From Rhodospirillales bacterium (lineage in GTDB: Bacteria; Pseudomonadota; Alphaproteobacteria; Micavibrionales; Micavibrionaceae), in contig JACKIQ010000005.1 in the NCBI GenBank assembly GCA_020638365.1, positions 50,509-114,508 on the forward strand: a stretch of DNA of 64,000 nt, read 5' to 3'. The position numbers were made by a program, and so were the translations under genes. Positions 27,468 through 31,928 of the stretch are shown here, piece after piece; within the stretch, counting starts at the first letter, position 1, and every line of letters begins with the position of its first letter. The notes beneath the pieces were generated by a model. It did not search any database and was not told where the DNA came from. It saw only the letters and a program-made list of their open reading frames with translations.

Positions 27468-27553
27468 GGAGGGGTGGCCGAGTGGCTAAAGGCAGCAGAC
27501 TGTAAATCTGCCCTCTTCGGAGTACGTAGGTTCGAATCCTACCCCCTCCACCA
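27468..27553 (+). tRNA. tRNA-Tyr (GTA)
   Basis: GGAGGGG-TG-GCCGAGTGGCTAAAGGC, anticodon loop CTGTAAA, variable arm CTC-TTCG-GAG, T-loop GGTTCGAATCC, encoded CCA. Confidence 0.95.
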
Positions 27554-28719: not shown

Positions 28720-30261
28720 ATGGTTTTGCAAAAATCTCGTTTTCTTGATCGTCTGGAAGGAAGGCTGTACACGCGGCAAAGCGGCGCTTCGCTGGCGGTA
28801 TTCAGGATCCTTGTCGGAATCCTGATTCTCAAGGACGTGCGCAATCATTTCCTGCTCATCAAGTACCATCTGGAGTCCATCCCGTCCGATTTTATGATGC
28901 ATTACTACGGTTTTGAGTGGGTCAAGCCCCTCCCGTGGTTCATAGCTATTCAGGAAATTGTCCTGCCCCTCGCCGTGCTGTGCGTGATTTTCGGACTGTT
29001 CTATCGCGTGGCGATGCCCCTGACCACGCTGATGATCGCTTATGTCTTCCTGCTTTTCCCGGAGCATTACCTGAACCACTATTACATGCTCCTGCTGTTC
29101 TGCACGCTGATGAGCTTTATGCCTGCGAGCCGGACTTGGTCGCTGGACGCCCTGATAAAAAAGCGAACCGATGAGGGCGTGCCCGCATGGTGCTACTGGA
29201 TCCTAAGGGGTCAGACCGAAATCGTCCTTATCTATGCAGGATTGGTCAAAATCAATCCGGACTGGCTGAACCTGCAACCCCTTTCAACGTGGCTGCGCGC
29301 CGATTTTCATGACGTCCCGGTCATCGGCGGACTCTTTTACTACGATTTCACGATATTTTTGGGCGCTTACGGAATCATCCTACTGCATACGATCGGTGCG
29401 CCGCTCTTGATGTGGAGCAAAGCGCGGCCATGGATATTCGGCCTTTATGTGTGTTTTCACCTGACCAACAGCATGATTTTCGATATCGGGATGTTCCCGT
29501 TCCTGACGATCGGGGCGACGCTGTTGTTTTTCAACCCGGACTGGCCGCGAATTCTCTATTTCGGGAAGGGTGCGCCGCAGACCTTCACCGCTGAGAATAA
29601 ACCCGAAGAAGAAAAACAAGGTAGGCGCGGGCTGGTCACCGGCCTTCTGATAACCTGGCTGGGAGTGCAGGCCCTTCTCCCCCTGCCCGCTCTGATGTCC
29701 TCGAACCTCCAAACGGCGTGGACGGGACACAGGGATTTGTTTTCATGGCGCATGATGCTCAACCAGAGAACTCTGCCTGTCGCGGTTTTTGTGGCCTACA
29801 TGCCGGAAAAACATACCGTGGCGTTCGTGCCTCTGAGAAAGTACATCAGCAAGCGCCAGTGCCAGCGTAGTGTCTGGAAACCAAATCTGACCGTACAGGT
29901 CGCTCGATATCTGAAAAAGAGATATGCGGAAAGGTACGAGACGCCGGACGTTGAGATTCGCGCCTATATCCTCAATGCCGTCAATTACCGGGAACCCGAA
30001 CTCTGGGCCGACCCGTCCGCGAATCTTGCGGCCTACGTCCCCATCTACGGCGTCCATGAGTGGCTGGAACCCGTCGACAATCCTCTTCGCAGCTGGCTGG
30101 AATTGATCCGTGCTCCGAAAGTCGCGCGGCCCACCTACCGCCAAGTTTTAAAGGCGATGCGATTGCCGGAAGGCGCCACTGTCGCTTTCGATCAGAACGG
30201 CGCCGAACTTGATTCAACGGTTCCCGATATCGAATGCAACGCCCTTTATCAGGAAGACTGA
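28720..30261 (+). CDS. HTTM domain protein (vitamin K-dependent gamma-carboxylase-like)
   Basis: 513 aa. The N-terminal ASLAVFRILVGILILKD and multiple TM helices are typical of HTTM. Soluble C-terminal domain of ~180 aa. Confidence 0.7.
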   Translation: MVLQKSRFLDRLEGRLYTRQSGASLAVFRILVGILILKDVRNHFLLIKYHLESIPSDFMMHYYGFEWVKPLPWFIAIQEIVLPLAVLCVIFGLFYRVAMPLTTLMIAYVFLLFPEHYLNHYYMLLLFCTLMSFMPASRTWSLDALIKKRTDEGVPAWCYWILRGQTEIVLIYAGLVKINPDWLNLQPLSTWLRADFHDVPVIGGLFYYDFTIFLGAYGIILLHTIGAPLLMWSKARPWIFGLYVCFHLTNSMIFDIGMFPFLTIGATLLFFNPDWPRILYFGKGAPQTFTAENKPEEEKQGRRGLVTGLLITWLGVQALLPLPALMSSNLQTAWTGHRDLFSWRMMLNQRTLPVAVFVAYMPEKHTVAFVPLRKYISKRQCQRSVWKPNLTVQVARYLKKRYAERYETPDVEIRAYILNAVNYREPELWADPSANLAAYVPIYGVHEWLEPVDNPLRSWLELIRAPKVARPTYRQVLKAMRLPEGATVAFDQNGAELDSTVPDIECNALYQED

Positions 30262-30273
30262 TGAAACTAAAAC

Positions 30274-30537
30274 TTGACACGAATCGTCATCGCGATCATA
30301 GTCCGCGCTCCGCTCGGGAATGAGCCCGGCGGAAGAAAAGGTCTTTTCGAAATGAAACGCTTTTTGAACATACGCACAATGAATGCCGGGATGCTGCCCA
30401 TAGAGCGGCCAGAACGCGCATTCGATCAGCTGTGCCTGAAGGAGAGTTCCAGACCGAAGCGGTAGGTTTACCGCCTAATATTTCAAACGGATTTGAACTC
30501 TCCCAAAGCCAGACTTTCGGAGAGTTTTTTTATTTTT
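30274..30537 (+). promoter_or_regulatory. rtcB leader: sigma70-like promoter plus terminator/antiterminator element
   Basis: TTGACA (30274-79), 17 nt, CATAGT (30297-302). GGAGAGTT occurs twice (30441-48 and 30519-26), and both copies are complementary to AACTCTCC (30496-503). Confidence 0.55.
30496..30537 (+). terminator. intrinsic terminator upstream of rtcB
   Basis: 8-bp stem AACTCTCC/GGAGAGTT extended by AAAG/CTTT, loop CCAGA, then TTTTTTTATTTTT. It ends 11 nt before the rtcB SD. Confidence 0.8.
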
Positions 30538-30558
30538 GCCTGATGACAGGAGATTCAA

Positions 30559-31767
30559 ATGAGTGAGCATGTAACAATCGAAGTGGGCGGGGCACCCGTC
30601 AAAGCGTGGGTTAAGGGCGTTCCCTTTGAAATGGAGGCGCAGCTTCAGGTCGGAAACATCGCGCGTCTTCCGATTATCCATTCGCACGTGGCCGTGATGC
30701 CCGACGTTCATATGGGCAAAGGCGCGACTGTGGGATCGGTGATCGCCACGAACGGCGCGATCATCCCCGCCGCTGTGGGTGTGGATATCGGGTGCGGGAT
30801 GATGGCCATGCGCACGAGCCTGACCAGCGGGAAACTGCCTGACAGCCTAGCCGCGATCCGCCGCGAGATCGAGAAAGCGGTTCCGCACGGCGGGATCGGG
30901 ATCAAGGGCGGATGGAAAGACGGGGTGCCGAATTCCGTGGCCAGACGCTTTGCCGTTTCCGGCCTTGCCAAGGGGCTGGATATCATCGAAGACAGGCATC
31001 CGGCGATTGCCGGGGCGCATCACGTCACTCATCTCGGCTCTTTGGGATCGGGCAATCATTTTATCGAGGTCTGCCTCGATGAAGAGGATCGCGTGTGGGT
31101 GATGCTGCATTCGGGCAGTCGCGGCGTCGGCAACCGTATCGGCACGTACTTTATCGAAAAGGCGCGGGAATCCCTGATTAAAAAAGGGATCGGCCTGCCC
31201 GATAAGGATCTGTCGTGGCTTGAAGAGGGCGAGCCCCTGTTCAACGATTATATCGAGGCTTTGCTGTGGGCGCAGGATTTCGCCCGTCAGAACCGCGAGG
31301 TGATGATGGAGCGCGTGCTGAACGTGATGCGCAAGATGCTGACGCGCTTTACGATCGAAAAGCAGGCGGTGAACTGCCATCACAACTACGTGGCCCGCGA
31401 GCATCATTTCGGGGCGGATATCTGGCTGACCCGCAAGGGCGCGGTGAGCGCCCGCGAGGGTGAGCTGGGCATCATTCCCGGCAGCATGGGCGCGAAGTCC
31501 TATATCGTACGCGGCAAGGGGAACAAGGACTCGTTCTGTTCCTGCTCGCACGGGGCCGGACGGCGTATGAGCCGGACGCAGGCGAAAAGCACGTTCACGC
31601 TGGCGGATCACAGGGAAGCCACCAAGGGCGTTGAATGCCGCAAGGACTCCGGTGTTATCGACGAAACCCCCGCGGCCTACAAGGATATCGACGCGGTCAT
31701 GGCGGCTCAGACCGATCTTGTCGATATCGTGCATACGCTGCGTCAGGTTATTTGCGTGAAGGGATAG
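30559..31767 (+). CDS. rtcB: RNA-splicing ligase RtcB
   Basis: 402 aa with an AGGAG SD. Motifs VAVMPDVHMGKGATVGSV, GVDIGCGM, GSGNHFIE and HGAGR. Confidence 0.95.
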   Translation: MSEHVTIEVGGAPVKAWVKGVPFEMEAQLQVGNIARLPIIHSHVAVMPDVHMGKGATVGSVIATNGAIIPAAVGVDIGCGMMAMRTSLTSGKLPDSLAAIRREIEKAVPHGGIGIKGGWKDGVPNSVARRFAVSGLAKGLDIIEDRHPAIAGAHHVTHLGSLGSGNHFIEVCLDEEDRVWVMLHSGSRGVGNRIGTYFIEKARESLIKKGIGLPDKDLSWLEEGEPLFNDYIEALLWAQDFARQNREVMMERVLNVMRKMLTRFTIEKQAVNCHHNYVAREHHFGADIWLTRKGAVSAREGELGIIPGSMGAKSYIVRGKGNKDSFCSCSHGAGRRMSRTQAKSTFTLADHREATKGVECRKDSGVIDETPAAYKDIDAVMAAQTDLVDIVHTLRQVICVKG

Positions 31768-31836
31768 GTTATGCGCTGCAACCTCTCCCGCAAGCGTGAG
31801 TTCCGAATACCCCCGCAAGACAGGTTTTTGTTTTGC

Positions 31837-31928
31837 GGGGGCGTAGCTCAACGGCAGAGCAGCGGGTTTATACCCCGTAGCGCCAGATAAGCGGCAGGTT
31901 GTGGGTTCGAATCCCACCGCCCCTACCA
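31837..31928 (+). tRNA. atypical 92-nt tRNA, anticodon UAU (Ile-type), with a 22-nt variable region
   Basis: GGGGGCG-TA-GCTC-AACGGCA-GAGC-A-GCGGG-TTTATAC-CCCGT-[AGCGCCAGATAAGCGGCAGGTT]-GTGGG-TTCGAAT-CCCAC-CGCCCCT-A-CCA. U8, A14, G18G19 and TTC are all present. Confidence 0.7.

Follow-up and report, generated by a model that had tools for sequence, protein, structure and literature searches.

A mobile tRNA(UAU) family with a conserved GAU-displaying extra arm that may act as a decoy for isoleucyl-tRNA synthetase

In a 64,000-nt stretch of alphaproteobacterial DNA (hereafter, the window), a 92-nt tRNA with a UAU anticodon carries a fifth helix whose loop presents the GAU anticodon of the major tRNA-Ile. 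Across hundreds of relatives, this extra arm is among the most conserved parts of the molecule. The family is widespread and apparently undescribed so far, and it is horizontally mobile, residing in phage tRNA clusters, on plasmids and in long bacterial tRNA arrays. Our best inference from the sequences is that the tRNA is charged with Ile and that the arm serves as a decoy for IleRS. Whether these are accessory AUA decoders that the GAU arm, as an IleRS identity decoy, makes chargeable in any host is in our judgement finely balanced.

The tRNA(UAU) and its extra arm

31837..31928 (+): tRNA(UAU), 92 nt, five helices, CCA encoded (ARAGORN and Rfam)
31869..31871 (+): anticodon TAT (UAU), reads AUA (sequence and ARAGORN)
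31881..31893 (+): extra arm, stem CGC/GCG, 7-nt loop CAGATAA (covariation, invariant GAT)

ARAGORN called a tRNA with anticodon tat at 31837-31928 on the forward strand, and Rfam model RF00005 scored it at 64.9 bits (gathering score 29). Since this score lies in the range of the other four window tRNAs (63.5–72.8 bits), the gene is, by score, no pseudogene, and the genuine but atypical 92-nt tRNA(UAU) with a 22-nt variable region that the first-pass annotation had described is upheld. Its acceptor stem has 7 bp (GGGGGCG/CGCCCCT, with a G1-U72 pair) and is followed by T8. The D arm is of class I (GCTC-AACGGCA-GAGC; 4-bp stem, 7-nt loop), the anticodon arm (GCGGG-TTTATAC-CCCGT) has A37, and the T arm (GTGGG-TTCGAAT-CCCAC; 5-bp stem) precedes A73 and the encoded CCA. 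The variable region, AGCGCCAGATAAGCGGCAGGTT, is 22 nt long, and the RF00005 alignment places an 18-nt insertion in it; on paper, deletion of 17 nt leaves a canonical class I tRNA of 75 nt. A comparison of the tRNA body with co-resident tRNAs, made after removal of the arm and masking of the anticodon loop, gave Met, Asn, Arg and Ile tRNAs as nearest about equally often. The window copy stands alone, with its nearest tRNA neighbors at 27468 and 41269, and ARAGORN found no CAU tRNA in the 64 kb.

The extra arm follows the true anticodon arm and precedes a 5-nt variable loop that is otherwise normal. In the window it consists of CGC (31881-83), CAGATAA (31884-90) and GCG (31891-93), with the GAT at 31886-31888. 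Its stem is short, with 3 or at most 4 pairs, and the minimum free energy (MFE) fold chooses a slightly different 3-bp register. Across relatives, the 7-nt loop follows the pattern Y-A-GAU-(A/U)-A, in which GAU is kept in 151/151 unique arms and the remaining positions vary. In 141 of the 151 arms, A occupies the second loop position, where a decoding loop has U33, and thus the arm loop should be unable to decode. At the A37 equivalent, ~28% of all arms carry U, as do most of those from phages. The true tRNA-Ile(GAU) genes residing with these tRNAs have loops of the form Y-U/C-GAU-A-A, with C33 in place of U33 in 8/43 phage tRNA-Ile(GAU) genes of arm-bearing loci. Some arms contain the exact CUGAUAA loop of tRNA-Ile(GAU). 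The resemblance to the anticodon arm of that tRNA, first noticed in the window alone, is therefore confirmed, but the accompanying suggestion that the arm is decayed is contradicted by its conservation.

Covariation also supports the arm stem, which scored 0.725 compared with 0.166 for shuffles (0/500 reached it) and at most 0.144 for slid controls. From 35 relatives, RNAalifold recovered the acceptor, D, anticodon, extra and T helices unaided, with compensatory changes in 19 of the 25 consensus pairs; the 7-bp acceptor and 5-bp T stems of this consensus are those of the window tRNA. The linkers beside the arm (1 to 5 nt) vary in length and sequence and contain no cleavage motif. Two pairings of the loop within the tRNA were also considered. 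An AUA in the loop could mimic a codon and pair with the tRNA's own UAU anticodon, but many arms read GAUUA or GAUGG, without AUA, and we dropped this reading because AUA is often missing while GAU is invariant. Pairing of GAU with AUC of the T loop was discarded in view of the variation among T loops (GAGT, GATT, AAGT, GACT).

The arm is tied to one anticodon. A pattern anchored on the arm, with the anticodon left free, returned UAU in 132/132 arm-bearing tRNAs. The fetched loci contained 2,043 tRNAs; apart from Leu, Ser and Tyr tRNAs, those of excess length were almost all Ile(tat), with 240 cases compared with no more than 4 for each other anticodon. An unbiased viral scan gave 108 tRNA(tat) matches, including 74 unique sequences with a long variable region; 66 of the 74 had a GAT arm with a stem of 3–5 bp around a 7-nt loop, and the remaining 8 lacked the GAU arm. 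Armless class I tRNA(UAU) prevails in Patescibacteria (111/120 matches), so the arm is not required everywhere.

Distribution of the family and the rtcB-linked locus

Matches to the arm-anchored pattern came from over 120 metagenome contigs and from 16 viral ones; all searches together put the family in over 100 viral contigs and in at least three further bacterial phyla. Cultured carriers comprise 43 Vibrio phage records, phages of the Thalassavirus genus among them, the Xanthomonas plasmid pXCV183, and Lactobacillus phage Semele. The Semele tRNA retains the stem and has lost GAU; the host is L. plantarum, a lactic acid bacterium, and one study, by its title, reportedly concerns recognition of the UAU anticodon by IleRS in lactic acid bacteria. 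Seven long-form genomic copies came from Planctomycetota, Gammaproteobacteria and Acidobacteriota. Around these seven there were no protein neighbors common across phyla (synteny held within a phylum only), and no dedicated synthetase or modification enzyme adjoined the tRNA. There was no copy in 5,426 complete E. coli genomes, and T5-like matches in 311 Salmonella/Escherichia records covered only the T arm and acceptor of tRNA-Leu, which makes them irrelevant to the family. In open-access papers and on bioRxiv, we found no description of a tRNA(UAU) from bacteria or phages whose arm has GAU. This abundant family is annotated just as 'tRNA-Ile', so annotation pipelines and studies of phage tRNAs overlook it.

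Arm-bearing copies usually sit in arrays of 10–36 tRNA genes, and complete arrays with such a copy hold normal Leu, Ser and Tyr tRNAs and otherwise no AUA decoder. The arm-bearing tRNA is enriched near rtcB and near an HNH gene. rtcB was present in the fetched DNA of 11/143 arm-bearing loci, at variable distance and order, compared with ~0.25 expected by a rough estimate, and a same-strand HNH gene was present at 23/143. Most copies lack a nearby rtcB, and at least 27 of the 43 complete Vibrio phage genomes with an arm-bearing tRNA are without RtcB. The HNH family connects these loci to published L-arrays: it also occurs inside a 29-tRNA array on a Mycolicibacterium plasmid, where there is no UAU tRNA, and its Acaryochloris and Bosea copies have no array nearby. 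The 64-kb window holds no HNH homologue. An HNH homing endonuclease beside the Semele tRNA proved unrelated to the array HNH family.

In the window and three relatives, rtcB lies directly upstream of the arm-bearing tRNA, and the same set of leader, rtcB, hairpin and tRNA occurs in four related loci. The parts of the window locus are as follows.

30274..30302 (+): promoter-like site TTGACA-17-CATAGT before the leader (sequence)
30352..30465 (+): leader ORF, 37 codons, MKRFLNIRTMNAGMLPIERPERAFDQLCLKESSRPKR and stop (homologues in relatives)
30441..30531 (+): putative attenuator region (conserved terminator, complementary P1)
30559..31767 (+): rtcB, RNA 3'-phosphate/5'-OH ligase, 402 aa (Pfam PF01139, E=1.7e-127)
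31800..31810 (+): conserved box GTTCCGAATAC (relatives TTYCGAATAC), just 5' of the hairpin (all four rtcB-tRNA loci)
31810..31841 (+): precursor hairpin, 14 pairs, 3' arm includes tRNA nt 1-5 (folding, four loci)

A protein identical to the window RtcB is on record from an alphaproteobacterial MAG; the neighbors of rtcB are genes for an HTTM-domain protein and a response regulator. From the end of rtcB (31767) to the start of the tRNA there are 69 nt, an interval with no promoter-like and no terminator-like site. Upstream, the promoter-like motif AACTTGACA...CATANT recurs in two related loci (L374 and L377), and eight relatives have a homologous leader ORF beginning MKP. This ORF spans the 5' strand of a helix, P1 (GGAGAGTTC, 30441-49), and its stop codon falls within a second hairpin, P2 (30459-74). 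The 3' strand of P1 (GAACTCTCC, 30495-503) has an alternative partner in GGAGAG (30519-24), and this pairing, followed by a T-run at 30525-31, would form an intrinsic terminator whose 11 pairs are kept across 9 sequences. P1 was 88.9% paired, compared with 6–73% in slid controls, with covariation almost nil. On this sequence evidence, a leader-peptide transcription attenuator appears to precede a single unit of rtcB and tRNA in the window lineage. The leader ORF has ATA at codons 7 (30370-72) and 17 (30400-02), only a mild enrichment: with ATA at 0.84% of window codons, P(≥2 in 37 codons) = 0.039, and the four supporting loci are related.

The putative attenuator resembles those of the trp, his and ilv operons and the ribosome-stalling attenuators of resistance genes in having a short ORF over the 5' strand of a putative antiterminator and a competing intrinsic terminator. 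Unlike these, it precedes the gene for an RNA ligase, here with a tRNA as well, and contains 1–3 ATA codons instead of a codon run, and it belongs to no Rfam family; Rfam scans returned nothing for an rtcB leader or attenuator, or for the hairpin. Its conservation suggests how alphaproteobacteria without RtcR may induce rtcB when translation stalls.

The core of the precursor hairpin pairs CCCCCGCAA (31810-18) with TTGCGGGGG (31833-41), and the whole stem has a predicted energy of −24.8 kcal/mol. A 9-bp hairpin sequestering the 5' end of the tRNA had been proposed from the window sequence; it lies where it was placed, extends to 14 pairs and is conserved in four loci (the window, L213, L374 and L380), where the stem interiors differ and the energies range from −17 to −25 kcal/mol. 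The predicted MFE fold of the precursor favors this hairpin over the cloverleaf by 18–25 kcal/mol.

The rtcB-tRNA adjacency is thus real and non-random, but indirect. Removal of the extra segment, which the first-pass annotation had connected with it, is not supported; we attribute the adjacency instead to the known neighborhood of long tRNA arrays (PMC8421152) and to probable co-transcription in the window lineage.

Comparison with known tRNAs and arrays

Known bacterial tRNA-Ile(UAU), or tRNA-Ile3, likewise reads AUA without lysidine or TilS, has A37 and A73, and is annotated as Ile (PMC3575796, PMC8450103); the window tRNA shares its UAU anticodon and A37. The known form, however, is an ordinary class I tRNA with a variable loop of 4–5 nt, where the window tRNA has 22 nt with a hairpin, and it needs a co-evolved or eukaryote-type IleRS. 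In contrast, the arm family has a fifth helix with GAU, is mobile, and is found in hosts that probably possess TilS and an IleRS of the standard type.

Two groups of tRNAs combine UAU with an unexpected variable arm. In nematode nev-tRNA-Ile(UAU), the arm affects synthetase recognition (PMC3333845, PMC4300185). The nev-tRNAs (Ile(UAU) and Gly(CCC)) are nevertheless eukaryotic, have a full class II Leu-type V-arm and are charged with Leu, so that anticodon and amino acid do not match, whereas the GAU arm presents an anticodon of Ile, the cognate amino acid, and should strengthen the correct identity instead of undermining it. Allo-tRNAs are also unusual bacterial tRNAs (Acidobacteria, Clostridia, Proteobacteria) with a long variable arm, often UAU, known from environmental sequence, but they have 8/4 or 9/3 acceptor/T geometry and Ser identity (PMC7609411). 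The arm family has 7/5 geometry, A73 and a short, sequence-specific arm. Nor does the tRNA fit class II, given its 4-bp D stem and 7-nt D loop, UAU anticodon, A73 and arm of 3–5 bp. The insert does not look like an intron, being a simple hairpin of 13–17 nt without a bulge-helix-bulge (BHB), and the Rfam scan returned no intron family. The locus also differs from the Rsr/YrlA-RtcBA operons of RNA repair, which combine Ro60/Rsr, RtcA and RtcR genes with a Y RNA bearing a tRNA-like domain: it has a complete tRNA with CCA and HTTM and response regulator neighbors, and Rfam scans gave no Y RNA match.

Several synthetases read variable arms. Archaeal LeuRS reads the tip of the tRNA-Leu variable arm, and SerRS and TyrRS read variable arms as well; one of these readers belongs to class Ia and is related to IleRS. 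In these precedents, the shape of the arm or the bases at its tip are the native identity element, and we know of no case in which a variable arm copies the anticodon loop of another isoacceptor.

Long tRNA arrays (L-arrays) are linked to HNH and rtcB genes and are co-induced by translational stress (PMC8421152, PMC10272220). The arm-bearing relatives resemble this arrangement, lying in tRNA arrays with HNH and rtcB nearby, and many of them belong to runs of at least 10 tRNAs. The window copy is solo and adjacent to rtcB, with no array or HNH gene in 64 kb. L-arrays also have the TrcR repressor, whereas the window locus apparently has a leader-peptide attenuator. The two L-array papers make no mention of a UAU tRNA with an extra arm (PMC8421152, PMC10272220).

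Isoleucine charging and alternative roles for the arm

A mobile UAU tRNA faces a charging problem. E. coli IleRS charges tRNA-Ile2(UAU) at 1.1% of its native substrate, the UAU form being charged 360-fold below the LAU form, and UAU is accepted only by IleRS with a changed zinc-binding-domain residue (PMC3575796). tilS is widespread, and t6A37 aids charging by E. coli IleRS (PMC3575796). The Marinobacter, Microbulbifer and Xanthomonas hosts are expected to have tilS.

We propose that the accessory tRNA would read AUA through a UAU anticodon of the unmodified type and so would not depend on lysidine synthetase (TilS). An ordinary bacterial IleRS would read G34-A35-U36 and refuse U34; the decoy loop would give IleRS its GAU, and the ribosome would use UAU. 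IleRS could reach the decoy at the variable-arm position, or with the arm restacked in place of the anticodon arm. The outcome would be a tRNA chargeable with Ile whatever the host, and such AUA decoding, portable without TilS or an adapted IleRS, would explain its carriage by phages, plasmids and mobile arrays. The window lineage would probably transcribe rtcB and the tRNA together from a promoter at about 30274-30302, the leader-peptide attenuator would switch the unit on upon ribosome stalling, and the 5'-end-sequestering hairpin would likely delay release of the tRNA. Taken as a whole, the picture of a tRNA with two anticodon arms, a GAU decoy for portable AUA decoding, and an rtcB-linked attenuator sensing stalls, possibly at AUA, is plausible but somewhat doubtful, and we offer it tentatively. 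The identity change that the first-pass annotation had raised as one option would then hold in part, since the arm is probably an identity element, but for Ile; a class II identity is unlikely given A73 and the class I D arm.

Some observations sit poorly with the decoy. IleRS is a class I synthetase, and in the textbook picture the variable region points towards solvent; without restacking of the tRNA, the anticodon-binding domains are out of reach for an arm of 3–5 bp. Many arms have U at the A37 equivalent, though t6A37 aids charging by E. coli IleRS, and the tRNA body does not clearly resemble that of tRNA-Ile. The short stem of the window's own arm and the 8/74 long-variable-region UAU tRNAs without a GAU arm likewise count against it.

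If true, the IleRS decoy would represent a new principle of tRNA identity, in which the identity element is a copy of another isoacceptor's anticodon loop placed outside the anticodon. It would be the answer of mobile elements to the AUA problem, in which CAU needs TilS and UAU is rejected by standard IleRS, and it would offer a design for synthetic biology, with the anticodon freed from synthetase recognition, e.g. for codon reassignment. Thalassavirus Vibrio phages and the Xanthomonas plasmid pXCV183 are cultured systems open to direct tests.

The GAU hairpin might instead be a decoy or sponge for some other factor that recognizes GAU loops, such as an anticodon nuclease (toxin or defence) or a modification enzyme. 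Cleavage within the arm would not disable the tRNA, and the break could be sealed again by RtcB. Array tRNAs have been speculated to sponge toxin RNases, and RtcB to repair cleaved tRNAs (PMC8421152). The presence of arm-bearing tRNAs in phage tRNA clusters and stress-induced L-arrays, the excess of rtcB over the rough expectation, and C33 in phage tRNA-Ile(GAU), a hint of selection acting on the anticodon loops of Ile tRNAs, all fit such a role. We nevertheless consider it unlikely, because it leaves the exclusive attachment to UAU unexplained; no equivalent decoy is found on other tRNAs, RtcB is absent from most arm-bearing loci and most Vibrio phages, and we know of no nuclease specific for tRNA-Ile(GAU). 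It is also distinctly unlikely that the arm is a structural or fidelity device, tuning the bend of the tRNA on the ribosome or blocking U34 modification so that AUA is read without AUG misreading. UAU tRNA does misread AUG on E. coli ribosomes (PMC3575796), so mobile UAU tRNAs face a fidelity problem, and the arm emerges beside the hinge of the anticodon and D stems, but architecture alone predicts no invariant GAU amid a freely varying loop and stem.

A switch to class II identity (Leu, Ser or Tyr), with AUA mistranslated or reassigned as for nev-tRNA(UAU), seems very unlikely. A73 is compatible with bacterial Leu identity, but it rules out bacterial Ser identity, and position 35 is A, not the U35 of tRNA-Tyr. 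Although the V-arm-bearing nev-tRNA-Ile(UAU) accepts leucine in vitro (PMC3333845, PMC4300185), here the D arm is class I (4-bp stem, 7–8 nt loop), the arm stem has just 3–5 bp, its conserved element is specifically the Ile anticodon, and complete arrays already hold normal Leu, Ser and Tyr tRNAs but lack another AUA decoder. The first-pass annotation had also raised removal of the 17-nt segment as an intervening sequence, with RtcB joining the halves into a 75-nt class I tRNA. The canonical tRNA left on paper, the rtcB immediately upstream in the window and three relatives, and the recurrence of an HNH-motif protein and rtcB near the tRNA in arrays speak for excision, yet the same paper exercise yields a class I tRNA for any variable arm. 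The junctions have no bulge-helix-bulge or other conserved motif, only variable linkers, and most copies, including those in the phage genomes counted above, have no nearby rtcB. HNH nucleases leave 5'-phosphate/3'-OH ends, which are not RtcB substrates, and the window has no HNH homologue. A segment destined for excision would have no need of an invariant GAU or of a covarying hairpin, both kept here by strong purifying and compensatory selection, and we regard excision as extremely improbable. Finally, the order of anticodon arm, short linker, second arm and normal variable loop resembles a tandem duplication, which speaks for the first-pass annotation's option of a neutral relic. A neutral relic would have decayed, however, and this arm is conserved in Proteobacteria, Planctomycetota, Acidobacteriota and numerous phages, its stem changing in a compensatory way and its GAU not at all, which refutes neutrality as its present state; duplication may still be how the arm originated.

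A tRNA(UAU) family with a GAU-bearing extra arm

Of the five tRNAs that ARAGORN called in the window, one (anticodon tat) follows rtcB:

30559-31767, + strand: rtcB (Pfam E=1.7e-127), ending 69 nt 5' of the tRNA(UAU)
31837-31928, + strand: tRNA(UAU), called by ARAGORN; 64.9 bits against the Rfam tRNA model

The other four tRNAs scored 63.5-72.8 bits, a range that takes in this score, and the threshold is only 29 bits. Every anatomical detail that the first-pass annotation listed is present in the sequence: G1-U72, T8, a class I D arm with G18G19, the TTTATAC anticodon loop, the TTCGAAT T loop, A73, encoded CCA, and a 22-nt variable region containing CGC-CAGATAA-GCG. The Rfam alignment places an 18-nt insertion in this region, and the extra hairpin (hereafter the arm; 31881-31893) displays GAU, the anticodon of tRNA-Ile(GAU), in its loop.

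In a first scan, one genome per species was searched for the same tRNA body and UAU anticodon with a variable region of any length. At least 120 loci matched; among the matches listed, 111 belonged to ordinary class I tRNA(UAU), mostly of patescibacterial origin. Seven were long forms (Planctomycetota, Marinobacter, Microbulbifer, Cellvibrio and Pyrinomonadaceae), and their arms are nearly identical (GCGCCAGATAAGCG). A second scan, which specified the arm and T loop but not the anticodon, matched 16 viral contigs and at least 120 metagenome contigs, and the anticodon was UAU in all 132 tRNAs recognised among the matches listed. They amount to 84 distinct sequences with compensatory variation in the acceptor and T stems. 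Cultured carriers included 43 Vibrio phage records (Achelous, Brizo, Pontus, Thalassa and others; Demerecviridae), Xanthomonas plasmid pXCV183 and Lactobacillus phage Semele, and wherever these are annotated the label is plain 'tRNA-Ile'. None of the 5,426 complete E. coli genomes searched contained an arm-bearing tRNA(UAU). The pattern matches place the window tRNA(UAU) in a large family. Full text of open-access papers and bioRxiv, including reviews of non-canonical tRNAs and of tRNA identity, yielded no description of a UAU tRNA with a GAU-bearing arm; nematode nev-tRNAs and allo-tRNAs come closest in concept, and the tRNA(UAU) lacks the defining features of both.

Covariation and composition of the arm

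Because the earlier scans had fixed the arm sequence, a third scan of viral contigs required only the UAU anticodon loop, a long variable region and the T loop. A stem of 3-5 bp and a 7-nt loop with GAT at positions 3-5 were present in 66 of 74 unique sequences. The stems were diverse (CGC/GCG, GCGC/GCGC, GCAC/GTGC, ACGG/CCGT, GTC/GAC, ACC/GGT, CGA/TCG, CCCC/GGGG, TCTG/CAGA and, in phage Achelous, CAA/TTG), and the three inner pairs were paired in 40/40 distinct arms, with 6-20 both-side changes each. For these 40 arms, which were taken in only if two pairs adjoin the loop, the covariation score was 0.725, compared with 0.166 in shuffles (0/500 reached 0.725) and at most 0.144 in slid-partner controls. 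Unguided RNAalifold on 35 full-length sequences predicted five helices including the arm, with compensatory changes in 19 of 25 pairs. The family layout is acceptor, D arm, UAU anticodon arm, a linker of 1-5 nt, GAU anticodon-like arm, a normal-looking 5-nt variable loop (CGGTT, AGGTT, AGGTC or ACGAT) and T arm.

Across 151 unique arms, loop positions 3-5 were GAT without exception; position 1 was C or T, position 2 was A in 141, position 6 was A in 105, T in 42 and G in 4, and position 7 was A in 137. In 43 co-resident tRNA-Ile(GAU) genes, the genuine anticodon loop reads Y-(U/C)-GAU-A-A. By this comparison the arm copies the anticodon loop of tRNA-Ile(GAU), with A systematically in the place of U33. 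Eight of the 43 genes (L257:3913-3988 and 7 others; L-numbers denote fetched loci of relatives, phages and plasmids) themselves have C33 in place of the near-universal U33, with real anticodon loops TCGATAA or CCGATAA.

Extra arms are specific to tRNA-Ile(tat): of the 2,043 tRNAs that the fetched loci contain, and leaving Leu/Ser/Tyr aside, 240 over-long ones are Ile(tat), and no other anticodon accounts for more than 4. A second arm type, GGCGAAUAGG(A/U)UNCC, was seen in an 87-nt tRNA-Gly(UCC) of Vibrio phage Achelous (L257:2200-2286) and in a few UAU tRNAs without the GAU arm (L265, L373).

Excision with RtcB, disfavoured, and a proposed recognition of the arm by IleRS

The first-pass annotation had raised the option that the 17-nt segment is removed and the tRNA re-ligated by RtcB; this does not fit the distribution of the arm, most copies of which have no rtcB nearby. 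Among 708 RtcB-bearing phage records, Vibrio phages are not in the ten commonest groups, the tenth of which has 17 records, and therefore at least 27 of the 43 Vibrio phage records with the tRNA are without RtcB. HNH nucleases would not leave RtcB-compatible ends. Excision is also disfavoured by the lack of a conserved motif at the arm junctions and by the selection that maintains both a hairpin and a particular triplet in the segment. The arm may instead bear on charging. According to the literature, anticodon recognition by IleRS governs the transfer step. E. coli IleRS charges UAU-bearing tRNA-Ile2 at 1.1% of its native substrate, 360-fold below the LAU form; W905R, a single change in the zinc-binding domain, restores UAU recognition, and Trp905 is conserved among tilS-bearing bacteria (PMC3575796). 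Given this near-rejection, a mobile UAU tRNA would face a charging problem in ordinary hosts.

The arm would present exactly the three bases read by IleRS, and on UAU tRNAs only, and the most economical explanation is that it serves as a putative IleRS recognition element for a mobile UAU tRNA; the A at the U33 position would stop its loop from serving as a decoding anticodon. The predominance of armless UAU tRNAs in Patescibacteria is consistent with recognition of the arm by IleRS, and the weak points of this reading are geometric and biochemical. In the tRNA(UAU) of phage Semele (L387:1496-1586), the arm stem ACAC/GTGT is kept around a UAGAAAA loop and GAU is lost. Its host L. plantarum belongs to the lactic acid bacteria, in which, judging by the title of a study in the reference list of a review, IleRS recognises the UAU anticodon; the single case of Semele is consistent with the arm acting through IleRS. 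An unrelated HNH homing endonuclease gene lies 3' of the Semele tRNA.

Arrays, rtcB and its leader

No protein-coding neighbour of the arm-bearing tRNA is common across phyla. Its typical setting, in bacteria and phages, is a long array of up to 36 tRNAs in 8 kb. The commonest neighbouring ORF, found in 23 of 143 loci and always on the tRNA's strand, encodes a ~190-aa HNH-motif protein (Pfam HNH_5/HNH). rtcB occurred in 11 of the 143 loci (818 kb in total) versus a roughly estimated ~0.25 by chance, adjacent to 6 kb off and either upstream or downstream, and the HNH gene was also present in 8 of these 11. In having an HNH gene and rtcB nearby, these arrays resemble published L-arrays, horizontally spread tRNA operons with a flanking HNH gene and a link to rtcB; in Anabaena, translational stress co-induces them and TrcR represses them (PMC8421152, PMC10272220). 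A 29-tRNA array on Mycolicibacterium plasmid pCBMA213_1 encloses a member of the same HNH family (L385:6974-7441). Neither of the two L-array papers mentions a UAU tRNA with an extra arm. Unlike L-arrays, the copy in the window, whose source is an alphaproteobacterial MAG, is a solo tRNA(UAU), with no HNH gene in the window.

The ~190-aa HNH protein (L240:4622-5323 and 22 other loci) has an uncharacterised N-terminal domain of ~75 aa, and its gene lies 100-2,400 nt from the arm-bearing tRNA. Long arrays (L147, L214, L126, L178, L160, L206, L228, L229, L052) also include tRNAs whose wobble base, A, is atypical of bacteria, namely Tyr(ata), Phe(aaa), Cys(aca), Gly(acc), Ile(aat), Pro(agg) and Leu(aag).

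The rtcB-tRNA(UAU) arrangement recurs in L213, L374 and L380 (RtcB identity 80%, 84% and 80%), and the tRNA is absent after rtcB in L377 (82%), in L378, L379, L381, L382 and L383 (77-78%), and in Marinicaulis and Pelagibius (73-74%). Since only some RtcB relatives have it, the adjacency is lineage-specific. No rtcR, rtcA or Ro60 gene lies near the window rtcB, whose neighbours encode a response regulator and an HTTM/VKGC-like protein. The latter, 513 aa long (28720-30261), matches HTTM and the lumenal domain of vitamin K-dependent gamma-carboxylase, and its gene lies directly 5' of the rtcB leader. The leader (30274-30558) is kept in at least eight alphaproteobacterial relatives and matched no Rfam family:

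30274-30302, + strand: promoter-like site 5' of the rtcB leader
30352-30465, + strand: leader ORF of 37 codons (MKR/MKP...), with its stop codon inside hairpin P2
30370-30372 and 30400-30402, + strand: leader ATA codons 7 and 17
30441-49 with 30495-503, + strand: helix P1 (putative antiterminator), 89% of cells complementary, barely covarying
30495-30531, + strand: competing intrinsic terminator with T-run, conserved in nine sequences

In bacteria that lack RtcR, this layout looks like a ribosome-mediated (stalling) attenuator of the RNA repair ligase; translational stress is known to induce rtcB, and such an attenuator would agree with that. ATA stands at codon 17 of the leader ORF in all four tRNA-carrying loci, and also at codon 7 in three; the count is 0-1 in four loci without the tRNA. 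ATA makes up 0.84% of codons and is not rare in the source genome (P=0.039 for two in 37 codons). As the tRNA-carrying loci are related to one another, AUA-specific sensing by the leader would be a lead only.

In Pelagibius marinus (L376:3001-7215), rtcB, behind this same leader, precedes the genes for RlaP, Hen1 and Pnkp, which puts two RNA repair systems in a single cluster. RtcB of the Caulobacter giant phages CcrSwift and CcrRogue (JX100809, NC_019408) is 65-68% identical to window RtcB, a similarity suggesting that phages and alphaproteobacteria have exchanged it.

A 9-bp hairpin had been proposed to sequester the tRNA 5' end in the precursor; it exists at 31810-31841 and is longer, with 14 pairs (-24.8 kcal/mol). 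A hairpin of 13-15 bp occurs in all four rtcB-tRNA loci, its 3' arm being the first 5-7 nt of the tRNA, and the stem interiors differ in sequence among the loci. The precursor is predicted to favour the 5' hairpin over the cloverleaf by 18-25 kcal/mol. The hairpin may delay tRNA release, or may protect the rtcB mRNA 3' end after RNase P cleavage. Immediately 5' of it lies a conserved, T-loop-like TTYCGAATAC box (31800-31810; also L213, L374 and L380).
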